Numbered from the stretch's first letter, positions 39,659 through 58,096 are shown. The stretch: DNA of 64,000 nucleotides from Gemmatimonadota bacterium (GCA_041691775.1 JBEPUB010000013.1:11913-75912), one strand, 5' to 3'. Program-made: numbers and translations. Notes: generated by a model not told the origin, from the letters alone.

Positions 39659-39937
39659 CTAGACGCCACTAAATCCGCTACGCTGTAGCGCGCCCATCAA
39701 CCGTTCTCGCAGAGCCCCGGGGTTGGAATGCTCGCGCCGAAGCCGAGTGAGGCTCGTAAGAAACTCTCGTTCGAAGTCGTATTGTGGATAGCACCGCGCG
39801 CACATCGCCACATGGGCGCGAATGGCGCCCATCCGTTCGGCAGTCAGTTCTTCATCCAGGTAGTCCCATAGCTGCTTCATCACTTCCTCACAGTCGAGCA
39901 TGGGGGACTTCCACGGAAGTCTTAAACCTAGCTTCAT
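39659..39937 (-). CDS. zinc-binding anti-sigma factor (ZAS, RsrA-like)
   Basis: 92 aa with the motif H-x3-C-x2-C (HVAMCARC) plus an upstream Cys (LDCEEV). ATGA overlap with the sigma gene. Confidence 0.8.
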   Translation of the reverse strand: MKLGLRLPWKSPMLDCEEVMKQLWDYLDEELTAERMGAIRAHVAMCARCYPQYDFEREFLTSLTRLRREHSNPGALRERLMGALQRSGFSGV

Positions 39938-40536: not shown

Positions 40537-40902
40537 TGCATGGTCATGACGCCGAGACAATCCCGGAATGTTGAAGTTAGTTCCGCATGGGCGTGCGGGA
40601 TTGTCTGATAGCCGGTTAAGGAGTGACCCAATGATACCCGGTTACTTCTCCCGAGAGCGGTCGACTTCGCTGCAGACGATGAGCGTGGCCATCGCGGTAT
40701 CACCGCCGCGTAGCCAGCAGCGCGTGGACAAAGGCGTACCCGACAATCGGGATTGCGATTATGACGTACAGGCGCAGGAGAATCAGCAGAGCCACGGTTC
40801 CCCGACCCAGCTCACGGCGCGGCAGCGGAAGCTCTGATACGGCCGTGCGCTGGTCGGCTTCGAGAGCATCGATCAACTTCGGATCGTACTGCACGGTGGC
40901 CC

Positions 40903-42273
40903 TCACTTGGGCAACAGGTTCGGAAAGACCGTGATCACGCCATACAGCGCGCCAATCAGGGATATCGCAACTACGATCGTTCCTCCGGCTAGGTTCGCCC
41001 GCCATCCATTGGCGAGGTCGCCCATGATCTCTCGGTCATTGACGAGCAGTAGCAGGAACAGAAGTGCCGGCGCCATCAGCAGGGTGGCGATGACATTGAC
41101 CGTCAGCGTCATCGCGAGCAGGGGCGCCCCAGGGATCAGCACGATCGCGGCGCCCACCAGAGTCGAGCCGATCGCCGACCCATAGAACAGCCGGCCCTCT
41201 GAGAAGTCGAGGTTGAGACTATGCCGCGCCGCCACAGTCTCGGCTAGCGCATACGACGAGCTCGTGGAGATCGTCATCGCAGCGAGCAGGCCCGCCTCCA
41301 CGATGCCGAGCGCGAACAGTGTAGCGCCGGTGGTGCCGATTAGTGGGCGAAGTGCCGTCGCGAAATCGGCCCCGCTTGCGAACTGCGACACATCAACGTG
41401 CGCAGCGAACAGTGGAGCCGTGGCGACAACCGTTGCGATCGCGGCCGCCGCGGCCACGATAGCGCCGATCGCCGTATCCATTCGACCCTGTGACAGGTCT
41501 GCCCGCGTAAGCCCCTTGTCCACAACGGCACTCTGCTGGAAGAAAATCATCCACGGCGTGACGGTCGCGCCGACGTTGGCAAGGATCAAGGTCACGAACA
41601 CTATGCCGAAGCCGCCCGGTAACGGACCCCACGTCGCGACCGCGTCGGCCAGCTTCGCTCCGCTTGGGTGCGCAAGCAACGCCGCGGGAATGAAAAGCAG
41701 ATTGCCGACGGCAAGCGTCATCAACGCGCGTTCCCATGTGGCGTACCGCCGCAGTGCGAGCGAGGCAACCACCAGCACGCTCCCGAGGGTCACTGAGAGC
41801 CACGCCGGAATTCCGAAATAGAGGCCGCCGGCCTGGATCGCGATGAACTCGGTAACCAGTGTTAGCAGGTTCCCGAATACGAGATCACCCATCGCGAAGT
41901 AGCCCCAAAACGGTCCGAAGCGCTGGAAGATGAGCTCGGCGTGACCGCGATGGGTCGCTGCACCGAGCCGTACAGTCATTTCCTGGACCACAAAGGCCAT
42001 CAGGAAGGTGAGCAGGATGAATGGGACGAAGAAGCCAATGCCGTAGGTCGCACCCGTTGTTGCGTACGATACCATGCTCGGGCCATCATTCTCGGCGAGC
42101 ATTACCAGCACGCCCGGTCCGGCCAGAAGCCAGAGCAGCCGAAACCGCCGCTTGGCTGACCGAGTCTCCAGAATCTTCAGACGGTCGCGCGCCCGGAGGA
42201 TATCCTCTCGCGTGACGACCTCCTCGACCATTTCGCGAGGCGCGGCCGGAGATGTTGCGGGACTGGCGGTCAC
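40903..42273 (-). CDS. Nramp-family cation transporter with a non-canonical metal-binding site
   Basis: 456 aa with 11-12 TM segments. It aligns by eye to E. coli MntH. TM1 reads AENDGPSM where MntH has IDPGNF. TM6 reads GATVTPW where MntH has GATIMPH. GTGA overlap with the upstream regulator. Confidence 0.85.
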   Translation of the reverse strand: MTASPATSPAAPREMVEEVVTREDILRARDRLKILETRSAKRRFRLLWLLAGPGVLVMLAENDGPSMVSYATTGATYGIGFFVPFILLTFLMAFVVQEMTVRLGAATHRGHAELIFQRFGPFWGYFAMGDLVFGNLLTLVTEFIAIQAGGLYFGIPAWLSVTLGSVLVVASLALRRYATWERALMTLAVGNLLFIPAALLAHPSGAKLADAVATWGPLPGGFGIVFVTLILANVGATVTPWMIFFQQSAVVDKGLTRADLSQGRMDTAIGAIVAAAAAIATVVATAPLFAAHVDVSQFASGADFATALRPLIGTTGATLFALGIVEAGLLAAMTISTSSSYALAETVAARHSLNLDFSEGRLFYGSAIGSTLVGAAIVLIPGAPLLAMTLTVNVIATLLMAPALLFLLLLVNDREIMGDLANGWRANLAGGTIVVAISLIGALYGVITVFPNLLPK

Positions 42274-42968
42274 GCGCCACGCTCCTTCCTGCTCGGGTTC
42301 GCTCCAAGTTCATCGACCACTGCATCGACGAAGACCTGCCGAGCCACGTGCGGAGTTAGCCGTACGAGCTTGCCGCCTACGTTGAGTACGAGCGGACCGT
42401 CGAACGGCTCCTGCGTGACGAATTCGATCGCCGTACCAGGGGTCATTCCCAGTGTCTGGAGATGGCGCAATAACTTCGCGTCCTCATCGCGCACCCGGCG
42501 GATGACCAGTTGGGAGGGTGCACTCTGCTCCGCGAGAGTCACATTCGATGTCGAAGCGATCGTTCCGGCCCGCGTGGGAATCGGATCGCCGTGCGGGCAC
42601 GTTGTGGGGTGTCCAAGCAGCTGATCAATCCGATCTTCGAACTCCTCGCTGATGTGATGTTCGAGTCGCTCCGCCTCCTCGTGGACACTGTCCCAGGAGA
42701 AGCCCATGGCCTGGACAAGGTAAAGTTCGATGAGTCTGTGATGCCGGATAATCTCAAGGGCCATTTTCTCGCCGGCCCGCGTGAGCTTTACCCCTTGATA
42801 TGGAGTGTGCGAGATCAGCCTCAACTCCGAGAGCCGTCGCAGCATCTTGCTCACCGCGGGCGCGCTCACCTCTAGCCGGTGCGCCAACTCCTGCGTCGCA
42901 ACATTTCCATTTTCAGCGTGCGCTTTGTAGATGGCCTTGATGTAGTCTTCGACAGATGGTGAGAGCAT
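42270..42968 (-). CDS. DtxR/MntR-family metal-dependent transcriptional regulator with a C-terminal FeoA/SH3-like domain
   Basis: 232 aa with an N-terminal wHTH (EDYIKAIYKAH.., VATQELAHRLEVSAPAVSKMLRRL), a dimerisation/metal region (HHRLIELYL..HEEAERLEHHIS), and a C-terminal FeoA-like part. Confidence 0.85.
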   Translation of the reverse strand: MLSPSVEDYIKAIYKAHAENGNVATQELAHRLEVSAPAVSKMLRRLSELRLISHTPYQGVKLTRAGEKMALEIIRHHRLIELYLVQAMGFSWDSVHEEAERLEHHISEEFEDRIDQLLGHPTTCPHGDPIPTRAGTIASTSNVTLAEQSAPSQLVIRRVRDEDAKLLRHLQTLGMTPGTAIEFVTQEPFDGPLVLNVGGKLVRLTPHVARQVFVDAVVDELGANPSRKERGA

Positions 42969-42984
42969 TGATGCAGAAGGTTGT

Positions 42985-43031
42985 ATTAACTTTGGTTAAC
43001 TTATCCTAGGACCGCAGTTAACATTTGTCAA
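42985..43031 (-). promoter_or_regulatory. candidate sigma-70 promoter of the regulator-Nramp operon with embedded (G/A)TTAAC hexamers (putative operator)
   Basis: On the minus strand: TTGACA (43031-43026), a 17-nt spacer, then TAGGAT (43008-43003). GTTAAC sits at 43017-43022 and 42995-43000, and ATTAAC at 42985-42990. TTAAC-N4-GTTAA forms a dyad at 42986-42999 over the predicted +1 region. Confidence 0.4.
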
Positions 43032-43032
43032 G

Positions 43033-43087
43033 TTCCATGTAGCGGTTTCCATGTAGTGGTTCCCATGTAGCGGTTCCATGTAGCATC
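43033..43087. repeat. 14-bp tandem repeat x4 (ttccatgtagcggt and variants)
   Basis: Units: ttccatgtagcggt / ttccatgtagtggt / tcccatgtagcggt / tccatgtagcatc. It lies in the divergent intergenic region directly upstream of the -35 above. Confidence 0.9.
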
Positions 43088-43212
43088 AGGTCGCGCGGGT
43101 TGTGGCTGAACTATGCGAACATCGCTTTCTCTTGCTTTACCATTCCTCGCGCGTTTCCGCCGAAGGGCGCATATTGCCCTCTGCCGTTCGCCCTTATCGA
43201 GAGATTGCCGAC

Positions 43213-44856
43213 ATGCGCCGCGTTCCATTTTTGCCGACCTTACCAGCGCTCACTTTAGCCCTCTGGGCCTGCGCCAGTTCCGGTGTACCCGGGAGTTCGT
43301 CCATCACTAAGGACGCGCTTTCCGCCGATGTGTACGCGATCTCCGCGGACTCCATGCGCGGCCGCCTCGTCGGAACGCGCGAGGACTCCGAAGCGGGTGA
43401 CTGGATCCGCGCACGCTTCCAATCGCTGGGTCTTGTACCTGCCGGCGATGACGGCTTCGTCCAGCGCTTCGACATGAACTGGTTCAGCCTGGAGTCAGGG
43501 AACAGCCTCACGATCGCGGGCGCCGGCGCTGCGCGTGAGCCCGGTCAGGGCTGGACGCCTGCAAACTTCGCGGCGACGTCGTCGGCATCGGGGCCGGTCG
43601 TCTACGCGGGATACGGCATCGTCGAGCCTCACCTCGGCTGGGACGACTACAAAGGCCAGGATGTGCGCGGCAAGGTGGTGCTCGTGCTAGACGGCGAGCC
43701 CGGTGCAAACGATCCGGCGAGCCAGTTCGACGGCTTGGTGGCGTCCGAGGGTGGGCGTGCGTGGCGGAAAGCGGTTACCGCTGCAAAGAACGGGGCCGCG
43801 GCCATACTGTTCGTGCGCCCCGACACGAACGCGACTCCTGACAAGTGGAAAGCGATAAACGCCGTGGCGTGGCCCGCCAAACCGCGTCGTATCGAGCGAT
43901 TCCTGCTCGCGGACGGTGTGAACGAGATCACGATTCCCGCGGCCGACATATCCGTAGAGTTGGCCGACGCACTCGTGAAGGGAAGCGGTCGCACGCTCGC
44001 CGAGTTGGCCACGCAAGCGGAGGACGCACCGCACGGCCTGGGCGTTGTTCCGCTGAAGGACGCGCGCGCAAGCCTCACTACCGCCGTTGAACGCCACGTC
44101 ACGCCCGGTCGCAACATTCTGGCGATGATTCAAGGTTCCGACTCCACACTTCGCAACGAAGTCGTGATCGTCAGTGGCCACTACGATCACGAAGGCGCAG
44201 ACAGCGTAGAGATATTCCACGGAGCCGACGACAACGGCTCCGGCGCGGTCGGCGCCATGGCCGTCGCTCAAGCGTACGCGCGCGCGGCGAAACAGGGCCA
44301 TCGGCCCCGCCGCACCGTTCTCTTCGCGGCATGGGACGCAGAAGAGCGTCCCGAACTGGGATCGTGGTTCTATACGCTGCATCCGCGCTTCCCTTTGAAG
44401 AGCACGGTGGCTGTCCTCAACATGGACATGATCGGTCGCAACGAAGAAATACCCGCGAACGGCGGTGCGCGTTTCCGTGGTCTCACGCCGCAGACTGCCG
44501 AATCCAACGCCAACGCAATGAACATCGTCGGATCGAGTCGCTCGCCCGACCTAGCGGCCGACATCAAGGCAGCCGATAAACCGTTGGGACTCACAATTCA
44601 CTTTCGCTACGACAACAACGAGTCGAACCTGCTCCGGCGAAGCGATCAGTGGCCCTTCCTCAACAACGGCGTGCCCGCCGTCTGGTTCTTCACGGGACTA
44701 CACCCCGATTACCACAGACCCAGCGACATCGCGAACAAGCTCAACTACGAAAAGATGACGCGCGTCGTGAAGCTGCTACACGCAGTGAGTTGGAATCTGG
44801 CCAACGCGGACGGCCGGCCGGCCATCGAGCCGATGGGGAGTCGACCTCGGATGTAA
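43213..44856 (+). CDS. M28-family aminopeptidase lipoprotein with a PA domain
   Basis: True start ATG 43213 (MRRVPFLPTLPALTLALWACASS, with a lipobox). M28 metal-ligand blocks are present: GHYDH, GADDNGSG, WDAEE, NMDMIG. Confidence 0.85.
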   Translation: MRRVPFLPTLPALTLALWACASSGVPGSSSITKDALSADVYAISADSMRGRLVGTREDSEAGDWIRARFQSLGLVPAGDDGFVQRFDMNWFSLESGNSLTIAGAGAAREPGQGWTPANFAATSSASGPVVYAGYGIVEPHLGWDDYKGQDVRGKVVLVLDGEPGANDPASQFDGLVASEGGRAWRKAVTAAKNGAAAILFVRPDTNATPDKWKAINAVAWPAKPRRIERFLLADGVNEITIPAADISVELADALVKGSGRTLAELATQAEDAPHGLGVVPLKDARASLTTAVERHVTPGRNILAMIQGSDSTLRNEVVIVSGHYDHEGADSVEIFHGADDNGSGAVGAMAVAQAYARAAKQGHRPRRTVLFAAWDAEERPELGSWFYTLHPRFPLKSTVAVLNMDMIGRNEEIPANGGARFRGLTPQTAESNANAMNIVGSSRSPDLAADIKAADKPLGLTIHFRYDNNESNLLRRSDQWPFLNNGVPAVWFFTGLHPDYHRPSDIANKLNYEKMTRVVKLLHAVSWNLANADGRPAIEPMGSRPRM

Positions 44857-46422: not shown

Positions 46423-48984
46423 TCAGGCGTGCACGGGTGGTTCGAGCATTGCGTCGATCTCCGCGGCCACATCTGCGCTAGTCCAGTAGCGCGTGTGAGT
46501 GCCGGCTCCAAGGCATCTGTCGTACCGATCGAGCGGTGCGCCGCGCTGGGCTCGCTCAACGAACTCCTGCCGCCGCCATATGTCCGGCCAAGACATTGAG
46601 CGCCAAAGACTGCGGCCGACGTAGTCGCCGGTAGTAAATAGGTTCACCCACTCCGCCACGTTCAGTTCCGCCGGATCAGGGTGCGCATGATACGCCGACG
46701 TACCTACGGTATCGTCGTTGTTGGTATCCACCCACTCGTATAGATGCGGAAAATTCGCCGAGTAGAGCTGTCGCAGCGGCGAGCCCATCGTGAGCAGGCT
46801 CACCTTGACGCCGCTCATATCGGGATCCGTCGCCCCGACTGTCTTCAGAAAACGAAGCATGTCGGCCGCCATCACCGTGCCCTGGCTATGCGATACTATC
46901 ACGATCCTGTTGAACATCGGCTTGCCGGCGGCATCGCGCCGCTCAAGGATGTGCCGAAGCAGCGACGCGAAGCGCGCGGCCATCTTCGCTTTGGGTGTAG
47001 CCCAGCTTGGCGACTCGCGCAGATAGTTGTCCACGTCAAGTATGAGGCCGAGCGCCGGTCGGGCGTGACTCGCGAGCGCGGATACGCGAAGCCGAACCAC
47101 CGCGAGCCCAGCGGCAGAAGTCACGAGCGCGACCGCCAGCCAATTAACTATCGCATGCGTCGCTGCAGGGTCGAAGTCGCTCGTTCTGGCGCCAATCGAT
47201 AGCCAATCATGAATGCCGCCGACGAGTATGAATACGACGATTCCGACCACGAGACAGTCGCCCGCCACTCCCGCCCACGCGAAGCCCGAGCTCAACCAGC
47301 GACCGAGCGCCAGGCTGCCCTCATCGCTCGGATCACGTGATGATGGCGTCCACACACTGGTGACGGCAATCAGTACCACGAGCCACGATACCAGTACCGC
47401 CGTGATCGCGCCGGTAACGAGCACCAGCTTGAACCCCGATGTTCCGCTCGTCGTTATCAGCGCGGTAAAGAACTTCGACGCCGAGTTCACGGAGTCATCC
47501 GTAACTAGCGCCGGCACGATCTGTGGAAGGCATGCTCGTGCGCTCTCCACGCACGGCGGCAACAAGCTCAACTTTGCCTGTTGCGAATCGGCGATTCTTA
47601 CAACTGCTTGGTATCCGACCAGCGCGAATACGATGAACAGAAACGCACTCAGAGCGAGCGTCACGCGCGCGGTTCGCGCGACGCGACGCGCGCGCATCGT
47701 GGAGTCTTTGAACGCCGCCTTGTACATAACGGGAATGGAGGCGATCAGGGCGAGCGACGCGGCGACCCAGAACAGCCCCCAGCATATGGTGAGCGCGAGG
47801 TATCCCGACTCGAAGCCAAGCAACGCTGCGTATCTGATCCGTTCCGCAAGATTTGCGGCGGGAATCGCCGACCAGTTAACAGCGACAAGCAATAGCGCCA
47901 TCAGGAGCACGCTGTAGCCAACGACTCGCGCATGCGATCGCACACGATTGTAAGATCTGACGATCGCCCAGAACGCCACAGCACTTGTCAACCCGAGCAG
48001 ACACGAAACGATTACGGTTCCGGCGGGCTCACGTGCGACAACTCCATTGCGGAATAGCCACCACATCATGCCGCAAACAACGATAAGGAATCCGACGAAG
48101 AGATTGGATCCCCAGTGAAGCGCGGTGAGGCGGTAAAGACCGTAACCGAAACCGGCGACAACGATCACGGCCGCCGCGACGACCCCGATCGTGAAGCGTG
48201 CATCCGCCGCTATAGCCGCGGGAATGAACAGCGGTAGAAAGACGAGCATCACAAGTGTAGACAGCGGTACCAGCAGCGTGAATGCGCGCACAGCGGTCGT
48301 GTGCGCGCACGAGTAGAACTTCCATCGCCGCGCGACCGCGCCGTCTTCCTTATAGAGTTCCTTCGCCACGTCGACGCCCTTACGTCCAAGATGGCTGACG
48401 TGTAACAGAAGCTGATAGATCGCACCGAAAACGCGCAGCACACCGCTTCCGAGTCGTGATAGGTCGGCCCAGTGCATCTCGAACACGTGGATCGTCTGAG
48501 TGGATCCGGTGCTCCGCCCTCGCCGGCTACCGCATATCTCGATGGTTGCGTAAGCATCCTGATGACCCGCGCCATCGAACCCAGCTAGTTGCTCACGCAT
48601 GAAGGCGACGCCCGCCCCCTCCCCATAGCTCAGTGTGGGAAGCGCAGTGCGGTCGGAAGCCGCGTGCGATTGATGTGGCGCGTCCCGTCCCGCGCCCTGT
48701 GCCGCCGCGCTGGCTTGGTGCGCGGGACCGTTCTCGCTCGCAGCCTCGGCCCCTTGTACCAGCGCCGCTACGGGCGGCGGCGCAATGAGCGGATCGACTG
48801 CGACGTAGATCGATCTTTCATCGAAGCCGACGTATTCGCCGGCTGGCGCGAACTCGGTCAATAAAGCAGCAATCGCGCGGGCGGTGCTGAACGGAGGTGG
48901 TCCGCCCACGCCGTGCACGCCGATAATCGCTACGTGCTCTTCAGCCCGCGTTTCAGCGTTGGTCACGTTCGATCCCAGCGGCAA
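46423..48984 (-). CDS. large polytopic membrane protein; putative alpha/beta hydrolase split by about 10 TM helices
   Basis: 853 aa. The N-terminus has VAIIGVHGVGG (an oxyanion-hole-like HG motif). About ten hydrophobic helices lie between roughly aa 230 and 640. The C-terminus has IVIVSHSQGT (nucleophile elbow, Ser ~700), FTTGDYVGR (Asp ~787) and GAGTHTRYW (His ~830). TTG start (alternative GTG 48966). Confidence 0.6.
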   Translation of the reverse strand: MPLGSNVTNAETRAEEHVAIIGVHGVGGPPPFSTARAIAALLTEFAPAGEYVGFDERSIYVAVDPLIAPPPVAALVQGAEAASENGPAHQASAAAQGAGRDAPHQSHAASDRTALPTLSYGEGAGVAFMREQLAGFDGAGHQDAYATIEICGSRRGRSTGSTQTIHVFEMHWADLSRLGSGVLRVFGAIYQLLLHVSHLGRKGVDVAKELYKEDGAVARRWKFYSCAHTTAVRAFTLLVPLSTLVMLVFLPLFIPAAIAADARFTIGVVAAAVIVVAGFGYGLYRLTALHWGSNLFVGFLIVVCGMMWWLFRNGVVAREPAGTVIVSCLLGLTSAVAFWAIVRSYNRVRSHARVVGYSVLLMALLLVAVNWSAIPAANLAERIRYAALLGFESGYLALTICWGLFWVAASLALIASIPVMYKAAFKDSTMRARRVARTARVTLALSAFLFIVFALVGYQAVVRIADSQQAKLSLLPPCVESARACLPQIVPALVTDDSVNSASKFFTALITTSGTSGFKLVLVTGAITAVLVSWLVVLIAVTSVWTPSSRDPSDEGSLALGRWLSSGFAWAGVAGDCLVVGIVVFILVGGIHDWLSIGARTSDFDPAATHAIVNWLAVALVTSAAGLAVVRLRVSALASHARPALGLILDVDNYLRESPSWATPKAKMAARFASLLRHILERRDAAGKPMFNRIVIVSHSQGTVMAADMLRFLKTVGATDPDMSGVKVSLLTMGSPLRQLYSANFPHLYEWVDTNNDDTVGTSAYHAHPDPAELNVAEWVNLFTTGDYVGRSLWRSMSWPDIWRRQEFVERAQRGAPLDRYDRCLGAGTHTRYWTSADVAAEIDAMLEPPVHA

Positions 48985-49092
48985 GTGAACTCAAACGGCG
49001 CATCGGGGAGCTTCATCCTGTTCTGTTCCGTAAAGGGTTTCCCGGCCGGCACATCGACCGACACATCGACCGACACGCGAACGCCTCGGGCG

Positions 49093-50346
49093 TCACTTCG
49101 GCTGGTTGGCTACGGCTTGCGACTTCGCATTTTCGATGTCAGCCGCCGTGAGTGCGGCGATGCCGGGATCTTTGCCGAACTTCCATTTGAGGTTCGCAAT
49201 CGCGATCAGCGAGCCAGCCCGACCGGACTCGAAGTCCTTGCCAAAGGTCACGTTCAGCCATTGACTGTCACCAGTCTTGACGCTGAATCCAAGATCGGCA
49301 CGATACTGCCGGCTCGTTGTCGTGTCGCGATAGTGCCGCGCCACGAACTCACCGGATACGGCGTAGCTCGACCAGGCTCCGACTTCCCGGAACCCCAGGT
49401 CAACCGAGTGCGCGCTCAGTCGCGATGCGCCATCGGAACGCGCCCAGCGCAACAGGAGAATGTGGCTCATCGATGTGGTGACGTACGCGGGAGTGAGCCA
49501 GAACGCATACGCCGACAACGTACCCTTGTCCGCGGCCGCTGCAGGGAAACGGAAAGCCGTGCCCGCTGCTCCGCTCACGAGAAAGCCAGTGTTTATCGGA
49601 CCGTTTCGAATGCACGGTGCGTGAGTTGTATCCGACGCAAAGATGGAGTCGACAATGACCTTCTGCTGCGCGTCCGTCAGAACCACAGCCCTACCATTCG
49701 GCAATGACTGCCGCCGACTCAACTCTTTGGACGCCTTTTCGTCCAATGCGAGGAGCACTCCGACACACTTCGTATCCGGCCGAGCGGCGTTGTACAATAC
49801 CGTCCGCATCCCCGCGCCGATTCTCGATACGGAGGTATCGTGTGGCGTCGCGCCGGCTGTCTTGAACGCGGAGTCGCTGGTTGCAACGGAAAATCCGAGA
49901 AGGCGGTAGATGCTCGCGAAACCCGGCTTACGATACTCGGTGAAACTCAGCGACGGATGCGAGACGAGCCAGTACGGCGCCACGTCGATCGCGTAGTTGC
50001 TCGGGATTACCGCGTGCGTTCCGTTCGTGAAAGCCGCGAGAGCAGACACCGCCACCGCATCCGGAGACGAAGGCCGCTCGATGACCGAGGGCGCCAAGCC
50101 CAATATGAGAAACGCAGGTGACTCGGGCGTCCGAAGCTTGGAGAATTCCGGTATCGCGCTCGGGTCGGTTGAATTCTTCACCGGGCTACTGGCATCTTGC
50201 GACCAAAGGTTCACAGACACGGCGAAATTCGACACGAAGAGCAGACAGATCACCAAGGCCAATGAAAACCGGCCACTCGATTGCGAGCGCACGACGCGAC
50301 GCGGCTTCACAAAGGACGCGTCAACATCGCTAGAGACTAGCCGCAT
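49093..50346 (-). CDS. secreted hypothetical protein, possible outer-membrane beta-barrel
   Basis: 417 aa with a signal-anchor-like N-terminus (FSLALVICLLFVSNFAVSVNLWSQ). Alternating beta-strand-like sequence ends in SLIAIANLKWKF, followed by a 24-aa tail. It overlaps the upstream gene by 17 nt. Confidence 0.5.
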   Translation of the reverse strand: MRLVSSDVDASFVKPRRVVRSQSSGRFSLALVICLLFVSNFAVSVNLWSQDASSPVKNSTDPSAIPEFSKLRTPESPAFLILGLAPSVIERPSSPDAVAVSALAAFTNGTHAVIPSNYAIDVAPYWLVSHPSLSFTEYRKPGFASIYRLLGFSVATSDSAFKTAGATPHDTSVSRIGAGMRTVLYNAARPDTKCVGVLLALDEKASKELSRRQSLPNGRAVVLTDAQQKVIVDSIFASDTTHAPCIRNGPINTGFLVSGAAGTAFRFPAAAADKGTLSAYAFWLTPAYVTTSMSHILLLRWARSDGASRLSAHSVDLGFREVGAWSSYAVSGEFVARHYRDTTTSRQYRADLGFSVKTGDSQWLNVTFGKDFESGRAGSLIAIANLKWKFGKDPGIAALTAADIENAKSQAVANQPK

Positions 50347-50695
50347 GGCCTTCGAACGAGATCTGAAACGCGAGCGCGACTCTCTCGTGCGCAGCTTGCG
50401 CCGTGAATTCTTGCAGATACGGTTGCGAGCTCGGCCCGCCGCGCAGAGTCACGGTCGCACTCATGAGATTGGTCGGCGCGCCTTCGTTCTGCATCACGCT
50501 AGTGACAACGAGCGTCTGCCCTCGCAGCGTCGCACCGACGCCGACTGGTACGCCTGTAAGTTGAATCGCCCCACTTCCGAGCTCCTGGCCAGCAAGATAC
50601 ACAGTTGACGCGCCTGGATGACCATTCCCAATCTCTACATCACACACCACGTGATCTCCATCCCGCACCACGTAGGTACCCAGCTTGGTCGGCAT
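50330..50695 (-). CDS. small beta-rich hypothetical protein (121 aa)
   Basis: ATG 50695 is preceded by GGGAGA with a 5-nt spacing. No signal peptide is visible. It is Gly/Val/Thr-rich, and I recognise no family. Confidence 0.5.
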   Translation of the reverse strand: MPTKLGTYVVRDGDHVVCDVEIGNGHPGASTVYLAGQELGSGAIQLTGVPVGVGATLRGQTLVVTSVMQNEGAPTNLMSATVTLRGGPSSQPYLQEFTAQAAHERVALAFQISFEGHAASL

Positions 50696-50721
50696 CGCGA
50701 TCTCCCATTCGTGAACGTGCG

Positions 50722-50750
50722 ATAATAGACGCGACGTAAGGTAACGGCAA
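50722..50750 (-). promoter_or_regulatory. candidate sigma-70 promoter of the three-gene cassette
   Basis: On the minus strand: TTGCCG (50750-50745), a 17-nt spacer, then TATTAT (50727-50722). It lies about 27 nt upstream of the ATG at 50695. Confidence 0.45.
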
Positions 50751-50751
50751 G

Positions 50752-50779
50752 TGTTGACTTGAGACGATGTTGACTTGAG
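50752..50779. repeat. direct repeat tgttgacttgag x2 (16-bp period) abutting the -35
   Basis: 12-bp perfect copies at 50752-50763 and 50768-50779. Confidence 0.85.
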
Positions 50780-50810: not shown

Positions 50811-51770
50811 CTATCCAGCGTTTATCGCGACGGACGGTTGCCGCCCCTGCTTTCCGAGCCATTCTGCGTACATGGCGCTCACATGCGCTATCTGGCGAGG
50901 CGTCGATCCGTGCTCATCGTCCACTCGACACACGAAAAGTACGTGCGAACCAATCCGGTGTGTCTGGAGCACGGAGAGTTCCCGGACGAAGCCTTGCGAC
51001 AGTATAGGGCGACCGTGCAGCGGTGACGCGTCTATGTCGAATGGAAGGGCGGCGACATCGACGGTTGCCATCCGGTGATGCGCCCCGAGTGCATACACCG
51101 CCGCTAGCTGGTCCCCGGGCGCGGCGCTCATCGCGATCACCCGTGACGCCTCCATCAACTCGATGGAGGGACTCGTCGCGCGCAGGGCGAGCAGAAAATC
51201 ACCCGAGCCGACGCGGCCAACCAGATCCATCGGGAATAGATTGGTTCGACCACCACTCGCCACTCCGATGAGGTAGACTCGGCGCGGAGACATGTAATAA
51301 ACGTTCAGACAACGCAAATCGGGCGCGGTCATGCATAGCCGATCCCCGCGCGAACGCGCTCTCCGTGCGTGGACCCAGGCCAGCGCGTAGCGCCACCAAC
51401 GAACCGTCGTCGGCGCTGTCCAGTTTCGGCAACCATCCGTCCGGAATAACGACAGTGAGCCTTGCGACAGTTGCAGGGTTCCTTCGCTCGTAACATCGAT
51501 TGCCCCCAACTCGCTCCCCGTCGTAGCGTCGCGAACGACGAGCGAGCAATTGGGACGCGCGGCCCCCTGCCACTCTATCTCTCTCTCGCTCCATACACCG
51601 ATTACCAACGGCCTCAGCGAGACCGGAATGTGGTCAGTCGTGATGTCACGCGGCCCCTCCGGCAATCCGTGCAATTCAAAACGGACCTTGGGTTCGTTGG
51701 ATTCCCCAAGAACGATCGGTACATGGCGAAGCCCGTCGCCATGCCAGAGCCTAGTCAGAAGTCGCGTCAC
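50811..51770 (-). CDS. two-domain protein: unknown N-terminal half plus a flavin-reductase-like (split-barrel) C-terminal half
   Basis: 319 aa with a GTG start. The C-terminal half (PRRVYLIGVASGGRTNLFPMDL..FLLALRATSPSIELMEASRVIAMSA..RIGSHVLFVCRVDDEH) follows the PF01613-type pattern as I remember it. Confidence 0.45.
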   Translation of the reverse strand: MTRLLTRLWHGDGLRHVPIVLGESNEPKVRFELHGLPEGPRDITTDHIPVSLRPLVIGVWSEREIEWQGAARPNCSLVVRDATTGSELGAIDVTSEGTLQLSQGSLSLFRTDGCRNWTAPTTVRWWRYALAWVHARRARSRGDRLCMTAPDLRCLNVYYMSPRRVYLIGVASGGRTNLFPMDLVGRVGSGDFLLALRATSPSIELMEASRVIAMSAAPGDQLAAVYALGAHHRMATVDVAALPFDIDASPLHGRPILSQGFVRELSVLQTHRIGSHVLFVCRVDDEHGSTPRQIAHVSAMYAEWLGKQGRQPSVAINAG

Positions 51771-51776
51771 GCCGGT

Positions 51777-52544
51777 TCAGGGGGTGCGTCGCAAGACGAT
51801 AAATAGGAACTGCTCACCCAGCATGACACCCGGTATCGCCCGCCTGAACGATTCCCATCCTGACGCATCGCAGCGAGCCGCCTCCACTAGCGTAAGAGTA
51901 GATGGCAGGATGCGCTGTATGGTCCGCACGAAATGGCGGTACGTCGTAACATCGCCGTGCAGAGTGATAGCGCCTGTTCGCAGCGAGCCGACCAATCCTC
52001 GCCACCACCACCGCTGTTTCATGTCGGCGCGATACCAGGGGTTGAGCAGGGCCGCCACCAGTGATGCGCCGGGAGTCAAATGGGATGAAAGCGAAGCAAG
52101 CAACGGTGCGAGATCATCGACGTGGTTCAACACGGCGAAGTTGGCTGCAATTGCGTCGACCGGGGACGCTCGCTGCAGTGTCAACTCTAGATCCCGGAAG
52201 TCACCGGGGATGACCGGAATGATTGTTCCTTGCGCAATCGCCTCCGCACAGCGGACGCGCAGCACGCCCAGCATTGCCGAAGAAATATCGTATGCGATAA
52301 CCCGGTGACCTTGGTCGGCGTACCATGCCGCATCGGTCCCGGTGCCGCAACCGAAATCAAGGATCGTCCCGCCTGGACCGGCGAGCATCGCCACTCTGCT
52401 ACGAAATGCATTCCGAATCGCGCGATTGTCGGGTACGCCATCGACTTGTGCGTCGTACATCGTAGCCATGCGATCGTAGTACGACGCGGTTCGCAGCAAA
52501 TCAGCGTTCAACTCCGTCTCTATCGACACAGAGTCGTCACGCAT
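51777..52544 (-). CDS. class I SAM-dependent methyltransferase
   Basis: 255 aa with motif I ILDFGCGTGTDA, followed by post-I VIAYDIS. Confidence 0.8.
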   Translation of the reverse strand: MRDDSVSIETELNADLLRTASYYDRMATMYDAQVDGVPDNRAIRNAFRSRVAMLAGPGGTILDFGCGTGTDAAWYADQGHRVIAYDISSAMLGVLRVRCAEAIAQGTIIPVIPGDFRDLELTLQRASPVDAIAANFAVLNHVDDLAPLLASLSSHLTPGASLVAALLNPWYRADMKQRWWWRGLVGSLRTGAITLHGDVTTYRHFVRTIQRILPSTLTLVEAARCDASGWESFRRAIPGVMLGEQFLFIVLRRTP

Positions 52545-52666
52545 TTCTACTCTTCATAGAATAAGAATGTAGCCGCGACGACCCAAGCCCGCACAACTGC
52601 AATGGTGAACCCTGTGTCCGACGCCTTGCGCAGGCGATCGGGTGCAAGCCGTGAGGACAGCTAACT

Positions 52667-52730
52667 GGATTTAAGAGGATAAATCCGGCCCGCCATGGCA
52701 AATCCAGAGTAACCCGATAGTTTCTATCGG
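52667..52730. promoter_or_regulatory. two perfect inverted repeats immediately upstream of the cytochrome c-FTR1 gene
   Basis: GGATTTA-agagga-TAAATCC (52667-52686). CCGATAG-ttt-CTATCGG (52714-52730), which ends 2 nt before the ATG at 52733. Confidence 0.35.
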
Positions 52731-52732
52731 AT

Positions 52733-54529
52733 ATGATCGTGAAGCGGCCAATAGTCCGGAAATGTGGCGTTGCGGCGCTGCTCCTCGGGTTACTCGTGGT
52801 TCCGGCAGCCTCAAGGGCCCAGGATTCGGGGGCAAGAAGACTGGCCAATATAGTTTCAGTCGCTGTGGCCGAATACGGCATGGCGGTGGACGGGCGCGGA
52901 GTGCTCATTTCGGCCCAGGAATACGAGGAGACTGTCGGCTTCCTGCAGGATGCGAATAGAGTCGCCAGCGAGCTTCGCGGCGCACATGCAGCCGACTCGC
53001 GAGCCGCTCTCAACGCACTGATCGCCGCCGTCGTATCGAGGCGCCCGCCGGCCGAACTCGCGGGTCTCCGCCAGCGCCTGATTGTCGCCCTTGGCGCGGA
53101 AGGAACCGTGGAGTTGCCGTCGGCACCGCTGGACGCCACGGAAGGACGCCATCTCTTTACGCAAAGCTGCGCATCGTGCCACGGTTCCAGAGGGATGGGC
53201 GACGGGCCACTCGCGCACGGGCTCTCGACCGCGGTTCCAGGAATCGGGAGCACCACCGTGACTCCGAAGCTGACACCTGCCCTGATTTACGACGTTATCT
53301 CCGTCGGAGTTCGTGGTACCGCGATGCCGGCGTTCGGAACGTCACTTTCGGCACAACAGCGATGGAACGTGATCAACTACGTGTACCTGCTGCGCGGACA
53401 ACCCATGTCGCTTCCGCGAAATGGCGCCGCGCACGAAACTCCCAGCGTGGCCGCAGCGACGATACTCACGCTGCTCGACAGCGCCCGCTCGCTCGCCAGC
53501 AGCGGCAACACGACTGCTGCCGGTGAGGCCGCATTCGACGCGTATATCGCATTCGAACCGCTGGAGCCGATAGCTCGCGCGAAGGATCCTGCACTCGTTT
53601 CATCGCTGGAACGCTCATTCGCCAACTTCAAGCTCGCCGTGCGCGGCGGTGACATTGCCGCTGCGGACGGCGCGCGCAATGCCATCGCGAGCGCAATGCC
53701 GCGCGTCGTCGCGCTCGCGAGCGAAACCGCGGCAAGCGCGGCGATGACGTTCTGGCAGTCGTTTCTCATCATCCTGCGCGAAGGATTCGAAGCGATCCTC
53801 GTCGTGGGCGCGGTAGTCGCGGTTCTGATCAAGACTGGCAACCGCCAGCGACTCCGGTCGATATGGATTGGAGCCGTACTAGGCGTCGTCGCGAGTCTGA
53901 TTACGGCGATCATCATCAAGACCGCCTTCTCCGCGATACCGGCGAGCGGCGAAATAGTAGAAGCCATATCACTGCTTATCGCGGTGATAGTGCTATTCTC
54001 GGTGAGTTACTGGCTGATTTCGAAGGTGGAGGCGGTCAAGTGGCAGAAATTCATCACAGGACAAGTTTCAGCCGCGCTCGAGCGCGGTGGCAGCGGTGCG
54101 TTGATACTCGTCGCATTCCTCGCGGTCTATCGTGAGGGCGCCGAGACTGCGCTGTTCTATCAGGCACTGTTCAGTCAGGCGCACGGGACGGCGCTGCCGC
54201 TGATACTCGGGATAGTCGCCGGAGCGATCGCGCTTGCGGCCGTTTTCATCATGTTCTACCGATTCGGCATCAAGATCCCGCTGCGTCCCTTCTTTGCGAT
54301 AACGGGCCTGCTGCTCTACTACATGGCGTTCGTCTTTGCAGGTCGTGGAATTCGGGAATTGCAGGAAGGAAATGTGATCTCGATGACACCTCTCCGGCAC
54401 ATACCAGATATTTCATGGCTTGGTCTCTTCCCGACCGTCGAGACGATTGCAATTCAGGCGGTGTTGTTGCTGTTGTTTGCGTTCGCGCTGATCAATACCT
54501 TCGTGTTCCGCACCGACACACGCGCATAG
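52733..54529 (+). CDS. cytochrome c domain fused to an FTR1/EfeU-family iron permease
   Basis: 598 aa with a signal peptide and haem motif CASCHG with downstream Met (GTAMPAF). Seven TM helices follow, carrying two REXXE motifs (REGFEA, REGAET). Confidence 0.85.
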   Translation: MIVKRPIVRKCGVAALLLGLLVVPAASRAQDSGARRLANIVSVAVAEYGMAVDGRGVLISAQEYEETVGFLQDANRVASELRGAHAADSRAALNALIAAVVSRRPPAELAGLRQRLIVALGAEGTVELPSAPLDATEGRHLFTQSCASCHGSRGMGDGPLAHGLSTAVPGIGSTTVTPKLTPALIYDVISVGVRGTAMPAFGTSLSAQQRWNVINYVYLLRGQPMSLPRNGAAHETPSVAAATILTLLDSARSLASSGNTTAAGEAAFDAYIAFEPLEPIARAKDPALVSSLERSFANFKLAVRGGDIAAADGARNAIASAMPRVVALASETAASAAMTFWQSFLIILREGFEAILVVGAVVAVLIKTGNRQRLRSIWIGAVLGVVASLITAIIIKTAFSAIPASGEIVEAISLLIAVIVLFSVSYWLISKVEAVKWQKFITGQVSAALERGGSGALILVAFLAVYREGAETALFYQALFSQAHGTALPLILGIVAGAIALAAVFIMFYRFGIKIPLRPFFAITGLLLYYMAFVFAGRGIRELQEGNVISMTPLRHIPDISWLGLFPTVETIAIQAVLLLLFAFALINTFVFRTDTRA

Positions 54530-54884
54530 AACACTCCGTGATGACATCCCATATGGCATCCCATGTTGTTTGATTCAACCGGACTCGGCTTCACAATCCG
54601 CGACGGACAGATTCTGGTGCACTATCCCACGCGTCGCACCGCTGCAAGTGGGAATGCGTCCGACGACGGCGAAGGTAGAGAAAGCCACGGCACAGGTACA
54701 CCCATCGGCCCGATACCAGAGTGGTACACCTTCGATCCACCAAACGACATAACCGCCGAACGTGTACACCTGTGGCAGCAATTGCGACAGCTCGCCGATT
54801 GAGCGATCGTCGGGGATTCCCCTATGATTTATCCAGCTTATCCCGACTGAATCACTTGGTAATCATGCCGTAGGTTCCGACGGC

Positions 54885-56312
54885 ATGGATACTGTACACG
54901 GTGACAAACGGCTTCCACGCATCATTCAGGGTGGAATGGGGGTTGGTGTCTCCAACTGGGTGCTTGCGCGCGCAGTCGCTAAGAGCGGCAATCTGGGCGT
55001 TGTCTCGGGCACCGCGCTCGACACTGTACTCGTGCGGCGTCTTCAGGATGGGGATCCTGGGGGACATATGCGCCGAGCGATCGCAAAGTTTCCGATCGCG
55101 AAAGTGGGAGAGGAAGTACTGAACCGCTACTTTCTTCCCGACGGCCGGCCGGTAGGCCAGCCGTACAGGATGCTACCGATGTACAAGCAGGTAGTCAGCA
55201 TCGCGCGCCAGCAGGTGACGATGCTCGCGAATTTTGTCGAAGTGTATTTGGCCCGGGAGGGACACGACGGTGTCGTCGGAGTCAACCTGCTCACGAAAGT
55301 ACAGTTGCCGAATCTCGCGTCGCTCTGCGGCGCGATGCTCGCGGGTGTGGACTACGTCTTGATGGGTGCCGGCATTCCGCGCGAGATCCCTGGTGTGCTC
55401 GACGCATTTTCGGAACACCGCACAGCGTCGCTACGGTTCGACGTCGAAGGATTGCCACCGACGGAAGCGGAATACCTCACGTTTGATCCCGCTATGCATG
55501 GCGTGGATCCGTCGACCCCGTTGAAACGGCCAAAGTTCATCGCCATAGTTGCTGCCACCTCACTTGCCATGACGCTTGCTCGCAAGGCGAACGGACGAGT
55601 CGACGCATTTGTCGTGGAAGGACCGACTGCCGGCGGCCACAATGCGCCGCCGCGGGGCGAGCCACATCTCAACGATCGCGGCGAACCGGTCTACGGCGAA
55701 CGGGATGTAGTCGATCTTAACCGCATCGCCGAGCTCGGCCTTCCATTTTGGATTGCCGGTGGTGCTGGATCGCCGGAGAGACTCGAAGAATCGCTCGCGG
55801 CGGGCGCAGCGGGGATTCAGGTCGGAACACTGTTCGCATATTGCGAGGAGTCGGGAATCGCGGACTCACTCAAGCAGGAAGTGTTGCAACACGCGGTGCT
55901 AGGGGAGGTGGACGTGGTCACCGATCCGCGCGCATCGCCAACCGGATACCCGTTCAAGGTGGTGCGGTGGAACGGCGACAACGCCGACGGACAACGACGC
56001 ACACGCAAGTGCGATCTCGGATATTTGCGCACAGCATACCGCGATCCCACCGGACGTATCGGATATCGCTGTCCCGCAGAGCCCGTTGACGCGTACGTGA
56101 AGAAGGGCGGCTCGATCGAGGAGACCGAAGGGCGCGAGTGCTTGTGCAACGGACTCACGGCGAACATCGCACAGGCCCAATTACGCAGCGGGGGTATCGA
56201 GGAGCCGCCACTTCTCACCAGCGGCGACGACCTGCGCAGCATTCAGCACTTCCTCGGCGCTCGGACGCACTATTCCGCGGCCGACGTCATTGACTACTTG
56301 CTCGGCGTCTGA
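54885..56312 (+). CDS. nitronate monooxygenase / 2-nitropropane dioxygenase-like FMN enzyme
   Basis: 475 aa with an NMO N-terminal motif IIQGGMGVGVSNWVLARAVAKSGNLGVVSG and a TIM-barrel-like remainder (AFVVEGPTAGGH). Confidence 0.75.
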   Translation: MDTVHGDKRLPRIIQGGMGVGVSNWVLARAVAKSGNLGVVSGTALDTVLVRRLQDGDPGGHMRRAIAKFPIAKVGEEVLNRYFLPDGRPVGQPYRMLPMYKQVVSIARQQVTMLANFVEVYLAREGHDGVVGVNLLTKVQLPNLASLCGAMLAGVDYVLMGAGIPREIPGVLDAFSEHRTASLRFDVEGLPPTEAEYLTFDPAMHGVDPSTPLKRPKFIAIVAATSLAMTLARKANGRVDAFVVEGPTAGGHNAPPRGEPHLNDRGEPVYGERDVVDLNRIAELGLPFWIAGGAGSPERLEESLAAGAAGIQVGTLFAYCEESGIADSLKQEVLQHAVLGEVDVVTDPRASPTGYPFKVVRWNGDNADGQRRTRKCDLGYLRTAYRDPTGRIGYRCPAEPVDAYVKKGGSIEETEGRECLCNGLTANIAQAQLRSGGIEEPPLLTSGDDLRSIQHFLGARTHYSAADVIDYLLGV

Positions 56313-58096
56313 GCCGACCCCCGAGGCGCGACACTCGCGCGTAGCGCGTTGAGTATCACCGCAATGTCGATCACCTCCTGAAGCAACGCTCCAGGAATCG
56401 GCGCAATCTTTCCTGCGGCCGCGAATAACATCGCAATGCCGCTCAGTCCGAGCCCAGCCCAGATGCTCTCGTGGGCGATCTTCATGCTCCGGCGTGCGAT
56501 TCGAATCGCAATCGGAACGCGATTGAGCTCGTCGACCAATATCACCAGATCGGCAGCTTCGGTTGTCACCCCGCCACCGTGACCCGCCAGGGCGATTCCG
56601 ACTGTTGCAGCACTGAGTGCCGGTGCGTCGTTGGTGCCATCACCAACCATCAAAACGCGCTCACCAGCTGAGACAAGATCTTTCACGACGGCGACCTTGT
56701 CTGCCGGCGTCATGTCGCCACGAACCTCGCGGATTCCAAGAGTAGCCGCTACTGCGTTCGTATTGTTTTCGTGATCACCCGAAAGCATCAGTACCCGTTG
56801 GATATCCAGCGCATGGAGATCCGCCAGGATGGCCGGCACGTCGCTTCGTATCTGATCGTCGTATGCGATTGTGCCGGCGAAGCGGCCGTTGATGGCTACG
56901 TATGCCCTGAGACCGCTGGATGATTCAGTGGCAACATCGTCGCCCGCCGTTGTCAACTGTGCCCGAATGTAGTTGTGCGCGCCTACCGCGACCAGGTCAT
57001 CACCGACGCGTCCGGAGACCCCACTACCAGCGGTCTCAGCGACATCGGTGACCGGAGGAAGCGGCGAGTTCTCAGCCCGCGCCGCATCGACCAGCGTGCG
57101 TGCGAGGAGATGCGCGGCGCCCTGCTCTACAGCTCCAGCGAGCCGCAACACGTTGGCGCGTGTGAACGGAGGCGATGGAATGACATCCCGTACAACCGGC
57201 TTGCCGACAGTGAGAGTGCCCGTCTTGTCGAGCACAGCTACATTCGCCGTTGCAAGTCGCTCGATGGCAGCACCGTTTCTTACGATGATCTGGCGCTTTG
57301 CGGCGCGATTGATTCCACCAATGATGGCGATCGGTGGTGCGAGAATTAGCGGGCATGGCGTTGCGACGACCAAAACAGCAAGAAAGCGCTCGTAGTCGCC
57401 CGACGCCGCAGCAGCGCCGATCGCTACGACGAGAGTAATCGGCGTGAACCAGACCGCGTACCGATCCGCGACCCTCTGAAACGGTGCTTTTGTCTTTAGG
57501 GCCGCACGCACCAGCTGCACAATCTGTTCGTACTGGCTCGCCTCCGCGACCGCGGTGGCGCGCATTTGAAACATGCGCTCGCCATTCACGCTGCCGCTGC
57601 CGACAGTCGCACCGGGTTCCACGGATCGCGGAACGGATTCGCCCGTCAGGCGTGACGTATCGAGCTCGGAAGTTCCTTCGGTCACCACTCCATCGCACGG
57701 TACGAGCTCCGCTGGTCGTATGACGATCGTCTCACCGACCAGTACGTCGTTGGCGCGAACGTCCACGACCTCACCATCGCGCATGACGTGCGCAAACTCA
57801 GGTCGGTCGGCTTCGAGCTGCTGAACTGCACGCGACGCGCGGCCTTCGGCGTATCGCTCCAGGGCCTCGCCGCCGGTCTGCATCACAACAACTATCAGGC
57901 CTGCGAGCGGCTGGTTCATGACCGCCGCGGTGATGATTGCCAGCGTTGCGACCACATCCGACGCCCACCTTCCGTGTAGCGCGCCTCTGATCGTACCGCT
58001 AACGACGACTGCGCCCGTCACGACGAGCGCCGTCAGCCATATGCGATCGGGCCAGAGCGGAGCGCCGGCCGCCCATGCGATAGCTCCGGCGAGCAC
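56294..58096 (-). CDS. compact P1B-type heavy-metal ATPase, TPCP transmembrane motif, no N-terminal metal-binding domain
   Basis: 600 aa with a GTG start. Motifs TGES (LTGESVP), DKTGTLT and GDGTNDAPAL are present. The TM metal motif is VVATPCPLILAPP. Only 1-2 TM helices precede the MDVL-like helix (ASDVVATLAIITA). Confidence 0.85.
   Translation of the reverse strand: MLAGAIAWAAGAPLWPDRIWLTALVVTGAVVVSGTIRGALHGRWASDVVATLAIITAAVMNQPLAGLIVVVMQTGGEALERYAEGRASRAVQQLEADRPEFAHVMRDGEVVDVRANDVLVGETIVIRPAELVPCDGVVTEGTSELDTSRLTGESVPRSVEPGATVGSGSVNGERMFQMRATAVAEASQYEQIVQLVRAALKTKAPFQRVADRYAVWFTPITLVVAIGAAAASGDYERFLAVLVVATPCPLILAPPIAIIGGINRAAKRQIIVRNGAAIERLATANVAVLDKTGTLTVGKPVVRDVIPSPPFTRANVLRLAGAVEQGAAHLLARTLVDAARAENSPLPPVTDVAETAGSGVSGRVGDDLVAVGAHNYIRAQLTTAGDDVATESSSGLRAYVAINGRFAGTIAYDDQIRSDVPAILADLHALDIQRVLMLSGDHENNTNAVAATLGIREVRGDMTPADKVAVVKDLVSAGERVLMVGDGTNDAPALSAATVGIALAGHGGGVTTEAADLVILVDELNRVPIAIRIARRSMKIAHESIWAGLGLSGIAMLFAAAGKIAPIPGALLQEVIDIAVILNALRASVAPRGSAQTPSK

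Follow-up and report, generated by a model that had tools for sequence, protein, structure and literature searches.

The DNA analysed here, positions 46423-50779 on the minus strand of a 64,000-nucleotide (nt) stretch from a Gemmatimonadota bacterium (hereafter the window, to which coordinates refer unless another locus is named), carries three consecutive genes, A, B and C, which the original prediction, made from the sequence of the window, had grouped in a single system spanning the cell envelope. Gene A (50330-50695) is an open reading frame (ORF) of 121 amino acids (aa) that starts at ATG and encodes a predicted soluble protein without a signal peptide, gene B (49093-50346) an ATG-initiated ORF of 417 aa for a predicted outer-membrane beta-barrel of about 12 strands, and gene C a polytopic protein with the features of an inner-membrane serine hydrolase. 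A and B overlap by 17 nt (50330-50346), and B is separated from C by 108 nt up to a TTG codon or by 126 nt up to a GTG codon. The longest ORF of C, from the TTG (46423-48984), does have the 853 aa and the 108-nt distance originally given. The closest ortholog locus, L001, keeps the GTG at 48966 and not the TTG at 48984, and the protein is 847 aa long in the database, so that C most likely has this length (46423-48966), with a spacer of 126 nt; the TTG at 48984, absent from L001, was dropped as its start. The other gene-level features that had been described were confirmed: the 121-aa ORF of A and its lack of a signal peptide, the 417-aa B with a signal-like segment, the 17-nt overlap and an IAIANLKWKF strand followed by a tail, and the lipase-like motifs of C (VHGVG, SHSQG, GDYVG and GTHTRYW) in a protein with about ten transmembrane (TM) segments.

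A sigma-70-like promoter, TTGCCG-N17-TATTAT (50722-50750), and a Shine-Dalgarno sequence (SD), GGGAGA (50701-50706), five nucleotides before the ATG of A, lie upstream of the genes, both at the sites at which they had been predicted. A consensus scan of 5.2 kb returned a single promoter-like site, as against 1.2 +/- 0.9 in shuffled versions of the region, and the promoter match by itself is not above chance. Conservation supports a promoter function, because both hexamers and the SD are identical in L001 (a locus of 84% nt identity) while five bases of the spacer between the hexamers have changed. No intrinsic terminator was predicted on the minus strand in the spacer between B and C, and scans of the region for tRNAs, Rfam families (0 matches) and terminators gave nothing relevant; A, B and C are probably co-transcribed in this genome. 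The -35 hexamer is abutted by a direct repeat, CTCAAGTCAACA, present in two copies at 50779-50768 and 50763-50752, of which L001 has a single diverged copy, TCTCACATCAACA; the repeat could serve as an operator or could have arisen by duplication in this lineage.

No family of Pfam, NCBIfam, PADLOC or PHROGs was matched above threshold by A, B or C, none of which had been placed in a known family by eye; these four libraries returned nothing at all for A or B, and for C only a sub-threshold match to Tle3. Sequence-profile searches of the PDB with A, B, C and a version of C spliced to remove its TM part gave only local matches (E>=0.02), e.g. the designed protein 9sgw or, over the GxxTHTxYW motif of C, the TIR protein 8fz9, and these were treated as chance. 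The latter alignment joins the C-terminal RCLGAGTHTRYWTSADV of C (46495-46560, residues ~805-845) to a 138-aa protein at E=0.03, and probably reflects the chance similarity of a strand-loop-helix element. A literature search on Tle3, DUF676 and transmembrane hydrolases brought up nothing pertinent.

The conservation of the three genes was assessed from their homologs. On longer contigs, the B homologs are immediately preceded by a small gene (about 115 aa) that has no Pfam match. In locus L004 the 115-aa product of this gene and A share 44% identity over 114 residues (E=1e-29), and a hidden Markov model (HMM) of the A family, built from eight such small upstream proteins, matches the ORF that immediately precedes B in the window, L004, L005, L006, L007, L010/L011 and L014, i.e. 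at seven independent loci with the window included. A 114-aa gene occupies the position of A before a B homolog at the P0021 locus as well; the HMM has no match in L012/L013, where B carries a long low-complexity N-terminal extension. The A and B genes overlap or abut (17 nt in the window, 4 nt in L004), and the other flanking genes differ at every A-B locus. Judged from this gene order, A-B is a conserved pair, translationally coupled, that forms a unit of its own.

Co-occurrence outside this genome, which the original prediction had itself made the touchstone of its three-gene envelope-spanning system, was checked here, and the claim did not survive it, the trio being found together at none of the other loci compared. 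No C homolog is present at any of the seven other A-B loci, and a B homolog is missing from all eight C loci other than the window; among the latter, sequence of A is found only in L001, as a remnant of 35 codons, and at none of the seven others.

L001 shows how the two parts of the locus came apart. A segment of about 1.56 kb, comprising the 3' two-thirds of A and all of B (approximately 49022-50585 on the minus strand), is absent from it: by blastn and tblastn, window positions 50829-50592, with the promoter, the SD and codons 1-35 of A, are contiguous in L001 with 49014-46423, and beyond the junction, which was read by eye, follow the last ~48 nt of the B-C spacer and then C. The B-C spacer contains at 49046-49076, within the segment missing from L001, a tandem repeat with a unit of 12 nt, CCGACACATCGA (2.6 copies, 94% match). 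The remnant of A in L001 reads MPTKLGTCMVWDGDHVVCDVEIGNGHPGASSVCLATLPDAPFAFTSR up to a stop codon, and C, intact and 84% identical to that of the window, stands directly behind the same promoter. An intact A of 121 aa, 88% identical to that of the window, was found in another sample (P0019), and has two derived residues, V9M and T32S, in common with the L001 remnant, which also carries the non-conservative changes Y8C, R11W and Y34C. Because the intact A of P0019 shares these derived residues with the remnant, the state of L001 is read as a recent deletion from an ancestral A-B-C arrangement; the opposite event, an insertion of A-B in the lineage of the window, is ruled out by the 35 codons of A left in L001 together with the shared residues. 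Since C survives intact after this loss, it evidently does not need A or B.

These comparisons argue for two units rather than one system, because the closest relative lost the A-B unit and yet kept C. Our preferred reading, to which we assign a probability of roughly 0.72, is that the apparent cassette arose by the juxtaposition, in this lineage, of two independent units under one promoter, namely the A-B pair and C, the latter being, on the strength of its sequence and distribution, a rare and stand-alone inner-membrane enzyme unit.

A word-indexed search with B returned one copy, 99% identical, and an exhaustive HMMER search returned 1,334 cluster representatives at E<=1e-3, of which 566 reach E<=1e-10 and 64 reach E<=1e-30. 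All carry the source name 'hypothetical protein', and the one named member comes from a metagenome-assembled genome (MAG) of Kofleriaceae. Scans of genomes and metagenomes with B alignments yielded one and four short loci, respectively, and tblastn of B against plasmids gave no match, phages not having been searched with B. Pfam found no family at E<1 for B itself and no consistent match among 63 members of its family (Porin_4 twice, with a best E=0.023, and OMP_b-brl once, E=0.00037), neither Pfam nor profile searches placed B in the FadL/Toluene_X family or among the general porins, and the PDB sequence-profile search returned no outer-membrane protein (OMP).

The structural evidence is of a different kind, and bears out the barrel that had been proposed for B. 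A model computed with AlphaFold2 (AF2) from 63 sequences, with a predicted local distance difference test score (pLDDT) of 81 and a predicted TM-score (pTM) of 0.74, shows a signal-like N-terminal helix and 11-12 long antiparallel strands, with a helical hairpin of ~55 aa (residues 192-248) between strands 3 and 4. Compared with the PDB by Foldseek, the model returned only outer-membrane barrels, with E down to 8e-4 and low TM-scores (0.2-0.45); a probability of 1.0 was reached by the EspP beta-domain, Bdellovibrio OmpA and OmpU/OmpC/OmpF, and up to 0.99 by FadL, further matches including NanC and FapF. AF2 and Foldseek thus agree on a closed antiparallel barrel. The N-terminus of B has a basic n-region followed by the hydrophobic FSLALVICLLFVSNFAVSV, with an equivalent segment in all aligned homologs; it was judged to be a signal peptide from these two features by inspection. 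B of the window ends in ...LIAIANLKWKF and a tail of 26 aa. This last strand, a candidate beta-signal with an aromatic end, is conserved in the family as ...ALANLQWxF, and every member continues past it for another 8-26 aa, so that the C-terminus lies beyond the strand. The model supports an outer-membrane beta-barrel of about 12 strands, whose conserved N-terminal stretch (IPEFxKLRTPxSPAFxILG...ERPTTP...APYWL) may serve as a plug.

For A, no relatives were found in Pfam or the PDB. Every family member examined lacks both a signal peptide and a hydrophobic stretch at the N-terminus. The C-terminus of most A proteins is a strand with alternating hydrophobic residues, ...ITFV/VNFV/VQFV, which resembles the terminal strand of OMPs; in the window a C-terminal extension, EGHAASL, masks the putative strand. 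A is probably a soluble, beta-rich protein of ~115-120 aa. Gene A of the window also contains an imperfect 21-nt tandem repeat (50634-50673), which encodes the heptads YVVRDGD and HVVCDVE. In the mechanism that we envisage, B would be a substrate-specific outer-membrane channel or anchor, and A would be its dedicated partner.

Alternatively, A might be the cargo of B, exported or displayed through the barrel, and not a cytoplasmic partner. Strict adjacency and translational coupling of the two genes would suit such a relation, as would the OMP-type terminal strand of most A proteins and the likeness of B to 12-stranded secretion barrels, EspP being ranked first and FapF 49th by Foldseek. Against it, the lack of a signal peptide or N-terminal hydrophobic segment in the A members examined leaves no apparent route across the inner membrane, and the EGHAASL extension covers the putative terminal strand in the window. 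We consider export or display of A possible but unlikely, and retain the dedicated partner as the preferred role.

Two neighbours of A-B pairs deserve mention in their own right. Upstream of the pair in L014, a 491-aa protein (L014 4075-5550) matches phrog_2971 (E=1e-44) and phrog_1735 (E=2e-34), PHROGs of unknown function, and was not seen near other A-B pairs. In L010, a secreted protein of 921 aa (L010 2780-5545, minus strand), convergent to the pair, consists of about 17 Cys-rich repeats (...CGDGxC...GE...SCxxDC...) and has no Pfam match.

C belongs to a much smaller family. A database search returned 16 homologs of 28-84% identity, those with names being from Gemmatimonadaceae MAGs, and tblastn against plasmids and phages added one more, a hypothetical protein of 751 aa on a 689-kb megaplasmid of Cupriavidus pinatubonensis, which the C-family HMM matches over its full length (E=3e-93) and which keeps all the motifs. 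Used as a tblastn query in turn, the Cupriavidus homolog found only itself among plasmids and nothing among phages.

Three parts can be distinguished in the 847-aa protein, all encoded on the minus strand. Residues 1-176 (48439-48966) would form the N-terminal half of a hydrolase, with a strand followed by H18-G19 and the motif EMHWADLSR; residues 177-650 (47017-48438) form a membrane insertion with about ten predicted TM helices (residues 230-624); and residues 651-847 (46426-47016) would form the C-terminal half, with the nucleophile elbow S-H-S694-Q-G. The putative catalytic residues S694, D781 and H824 are encoded at 46885-46887, 46624-46626 and 46495-46497. Across the 16 homologs, VHGVG (17-20), EMHWADLSR (163-171), LDVDNYLR (643-650), HS694QG, MGSPLRQ (728-733), GD781YVGR and GxH824TxYW are invariant or at least 90% conserved. 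In the elbow, S/A/T-H-S694-Q/L-G, S694 is invariant and G696 at least 90% conserved, a level also reached by D781 (in GDYVGR) and H824 (in GxHTxYW), with the order Ser-Asp-His kept.

The AF2 model of C (overall pLDDT 70.5) places the HG directly after a strand (residues 10-18), Ser694 between a strand (687-693) and a helix (695-710) with pLDDT ~90, Asp781 after the strand 772-777 and His824 after the strand 816-818, which is the canonical sequence of elements of an alpha/beta-hydrolase; Ser694 thereby sits in a small-x-Ser-x-small nucleophile elbow at a strand-helix turn. Residues ~177-650 are all-helical in the model, and hydropathy gives ~10 TM segments between residues 230 and 624. The short loops on the side of the hydrolase halves hold 15 Lys/Arg as opposed to six on the other side, and the 58-aa loop between TM7 and TM8, on the side opposite the hydrolase, has a pair of cysteines (C472/C479). 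Because the number of TM segments is even, the Lys/Arg bias points inwards, the Cys pair lies on the opposite side and no signal peptide is present, both hydrolase halves are probably exposed on the cytoplasmic face.

A Pfam scan of the 16 members gave sub-threshold matches to Tle3 in ten of them, and also to DUF676, DUF900 and DUF3089; all of these are alpha/beta-hydrolase families, the matches to Tle3, DUF676 and DUF900 lying over the elbow, and the best E value was 0.006 (Tle3). For C of the window, the match to Tle3 (PF24322) has E=0.044 and 13.7 bits, short of the gathering cut-off of 27 that membership among the Tle3 effectors would take, and covers ~45 residues (profile positions 164-205 of 321). 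The profile of C spliced to remove the TM part aligned with PDB 7x2p, a 'putative lipase', at E=0.15, with the HG strand, the elbow and the 'TMGSP' segment in register. Foldseek with the full-length model found no significant match in the PDB, alpha/beta-hydrolases appearing only at E ~3; a significant profile or fold match of C to a known alpha/beta-hydrolase was thus not obtained. From the motifs and their order we infer that C is a lipase-type alpha/beta-hydrolase with a Ser694-Asp781-His824 triad and an HG oxyanion motif, split by a TM bundle. Such an enzyme would hydrolyse ester or thioester bonds in a substrate embedded in the membrane, most probably a lipid, on the cytoplasmic leaflet of the inner membrane, and the TM bundle would bind the substrate or present it to the catalytic domain.

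The genes around C differ from locus to locus. Its neighbours are Abhydrolase_1 and Pyr_redox genes in L001; a divergent phosphoenolpyruvate carboxylase gene in L003; a divergent Ser/Thr kinase and an isochorismatase in L015; a divergent beta-lactamase at the P0003 locus; and His_Phos_1 and PDDEXK_3 genes in L016. In L002, two proteins with no assigned function (324 and 310 aa), a 375-aa membrane protein and a 164-aa M15_4 peptidase are encoded upstream of C, and in L018 a sensor kinase upstream and two further such proteins, of 325 and 317 aa, downstream. In Cupriavidus (L017, NZ_CP080769.1, C at 374597-376852) a PG_binding+CHAP protein and a 162-aa protein with a weak M15_4 match accompany C. 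The Pfam annotations listed for all nine C loci, the window included, show no marker of a type VI secretion system (T6SS), i.e. VgrG, PAAR or Tli immunity, and no T6SS context was found within ~10 kb on either side of C in the window, where the neighbours are metabolic and metal-homeostasis genes.

Two recurrent arrangements were noted among these neighbours. The divergent C homologs of L002 and L018 are flanked by a conserved gene pair (L002 4323-6259 and L018 5502-7432), one member of which encodes a soluble protein of 324/325 aa that bears the serine-hydrolase motifs HG and AHSLG (50% identity from one locus to the other) and the other a secreted protein of 310/317 aa that ends in an OMP-like VPY[ML]F (39% identical). 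With tblastn this pair was found neither in the window nor in any other locus searched, and hhalign of the C hydrolase profile against the 324/325-aa proteins gave a probability of 4.6%, at which homology is not demonstrable. Cell-wall hydrolase genes, moreover, immediately precede C homologs in two distant taxa: the M15_4 peptidase gene of L002 (7517-8011, E=5e-10) overlaps the start of C, and in Cupriavidus the PG_binding_1+CHAP protein (annotated TIGR02594) and the 162-aa protein (M15_4, E=0.04) occupy this position, in a region that also holds genes for a patatin-like phospholipase, H-NS and a DUF4062 protein.

This variable setting raises the question of whether C is an accessory conflict gene, i.e. 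a Tle3-like toxin or a membrane-disrupting effector of anti-phage defence or abortive infection, and not a housekeeping enzyme of lipids, given that its sole Pfam hint is the Tle3 phospholipase domain of the T6SS, that its family is small and of scattered occurrence (Gemmatimonadaceae MAGs plus one megaplasmid of Cupriavidus) with different neighbours at every locus, and that some of these, such as the phospholipase, PG_binding+CHAP, H-NS and DUF4062 genes of Cupriavidus, the M15_4 peptidase overlapping C in L002 and the PDDEXK_3 neighbour in L016, would not be out of place beside one. The Tle3 match, however, stops at 13.7 bits against the cut-off of 27 and at ~45 residues around the elbow, PADLOC gave no match, and T6SS, phage and mobile-element genes are missing from the window. 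A resident protein with ten TM segments is also implausible as a secreted effector, and no candidate immunity gene is conserved beside C. We regard a role in conflict as improbable, and keep to C as a stand-alone membrane enzyme.

Several points weigh against the reading as two juxtaposed units. The order A-B-C is evidently ancestral to at least two species (the lineages of the window and of L001), and this, with the lack of a predicted terminator between B and C, leaves room for co-expression of the three genes and for some functional coupling in this clade. The samples of neighbourhoods are small, with nine loci for C (including the window) and seven to eight for B, and the OMP-like neighbour in L002 and L018 may mean that a link between the C family and envelope proteins exists. 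As to C itself, its fold is assigned from motifs and sub-threshold profiles, with no significant full-length Foldseek match; its pLDDT falls below 50 over residues 778-825, which hold D781 and H824; and its topology was derived from simple hydropathy and a charge count. The least probable of the explanations weighed here is nevertheless that A, B and C form one envelope-spanning system for the turnover or export of lipids or lipoproteins: for all that the genes share a strand, one conserved promoter and a 17-nt A/B overlap without a predicted terminator before C, that their predicted locations span the cytoplasm, inner membrane and outer membrane, that the arrangement is older than the split from the L001 lineage and that two divergent C homologs (L002, L018) adjoin a secreted OMP-like protein, C is missing from the seven other A-B loci and B from the eight other C loci, L001 lost B completely, together with the 3' part of A, while keeping an intact C under the same promoter, the predicted cytoplasmic catalytic domain of C argues against a periplasmic or outer-membrane lipid turnover linked to B, and the families differ in size by about two orders (1,334 representatives of B as opposed to 16 word-filtered homologs of C plus one from tblastn, counts from searches of different sensitivity).

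The wider window gives the two units an unremarkable background. A Pfam scan identified an amidohydrolase, an M28 peptidase, Nramp, a DtxR-like repressor, an FTR1-cytochrome c fusion and a P-type ATPase, and no T6SS, phage or mobile-element genes were seen, so that by its gene content the context is ordinary chromosomal DNA. The flanks at 39934-44856 and 50811-58096 are rich in metal-homeostasis genes, the metal-related set comprising an extracytoplasmic function (ECF)-type sigma factor, Nramp, the DtxR-like repressor with its FeoA domain, FTR1-cytochrome c and the P-type ATPase. Immediately upstream of A lie genes for a flavin-reductase-like protein (sub-threshold in Pfam, E=1e-4) and an S-adenosylmethionine (SAM) methyltransferase.

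What is new at this locus is the pairing of A and B in a large unannotated barrel family, and a C whose putative catalytic domain is split by a membrane domain; what is of a known kind is B as a recognisable outer-membrane barrel and C, by its motifs, as a lipase-type serine hydrolase. A tentative reading that goes further, and that we put forward as possible rather than likely, is that two undescribed entities stand side by side. One would be a widespread outer-membrane device of soil bacteria, A-B, with more than 1,300 clusters in Gemmatimonadota, Myxococcota and others, in which A, a small beta-protein without a signal peptide, would act as the dedicated partner, the plug or the cargo of a 12-stranded barrel that carries a plug and belongs to a new class. 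The other would be a new serine-hydrolase architecture, in which the catalytic domain of C would be assembled from two halves and the ten-helix membrane domain would deliver a lipid substrate. One may speculate that A-B and C were coupled in this lineage because B handles the product of C. The B family and its small partner are without a Pfam or NCBIfam model and merit the definition of a family, and C could show how lipid substrates reach an active site of the soluble type. The three-gene reading would have meant a new envelope machine, and its failure spares experiments on co-function; the natural deletion in the sister lineage L001 offers a ready-made genetic control.

Compared with known systems, B resembles the EspP beta-domain, FapF, NanC, FadL and the porins in its predicted closed antiparallel barrel of about 12 strands preceded by a signal peptide and in the aromatic strand ANLKWKF, a candidate beta-signal, and FadL and FapF in particular in a conserved N-terminal segment that could plug the barrel. 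It differs from all of them in sequence (about 10% identity, TM-scores of 0.2-0.45, no Pfam OMP family matched), in the ~55-aa helical hairpin between strands 3 and 4 and the short tail past the last strand, and in being accompanied by the small partner gene A, whereas those families have no such partner.

C shares with DUF676, DUF900, Tle3 (PF24322) and 7x2p the order of elements, i.e. the HG strand, the SHS694QG elbow, Asp and His, and with 7x2p also the strand after the elbow, where its 'TMGSP' aligns with 'TMGTP'. Unlike in these lipase families, all matched below curated thresholds, the domain of C is broken between its N-terminal strands and the nucleophile strand by an insertion of ~470 aa with ~10 TM segments, which none of the matched families has; the invariant motifs EMHWADLSR and LDVDNYLR are specific to the C family, and C is found without a T6SS context. 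Membrane-tethered lipases of the PlaF and PGAP1/Bst1 types likewise couple a serine alpha/beta-hydrolase to TM helices and act on membrane lipids, and neither profile nor Foldseek searches with C gave a sequence or fold match. In those enzymes the TM segments flank an uninterrupted catalytic domain, whereas in C the TM bundle would split it, and an alpha/beta-hydrolase domain divided by a polytopic insertion is, to our knowledge, an unusual build for a membrane enzyme.

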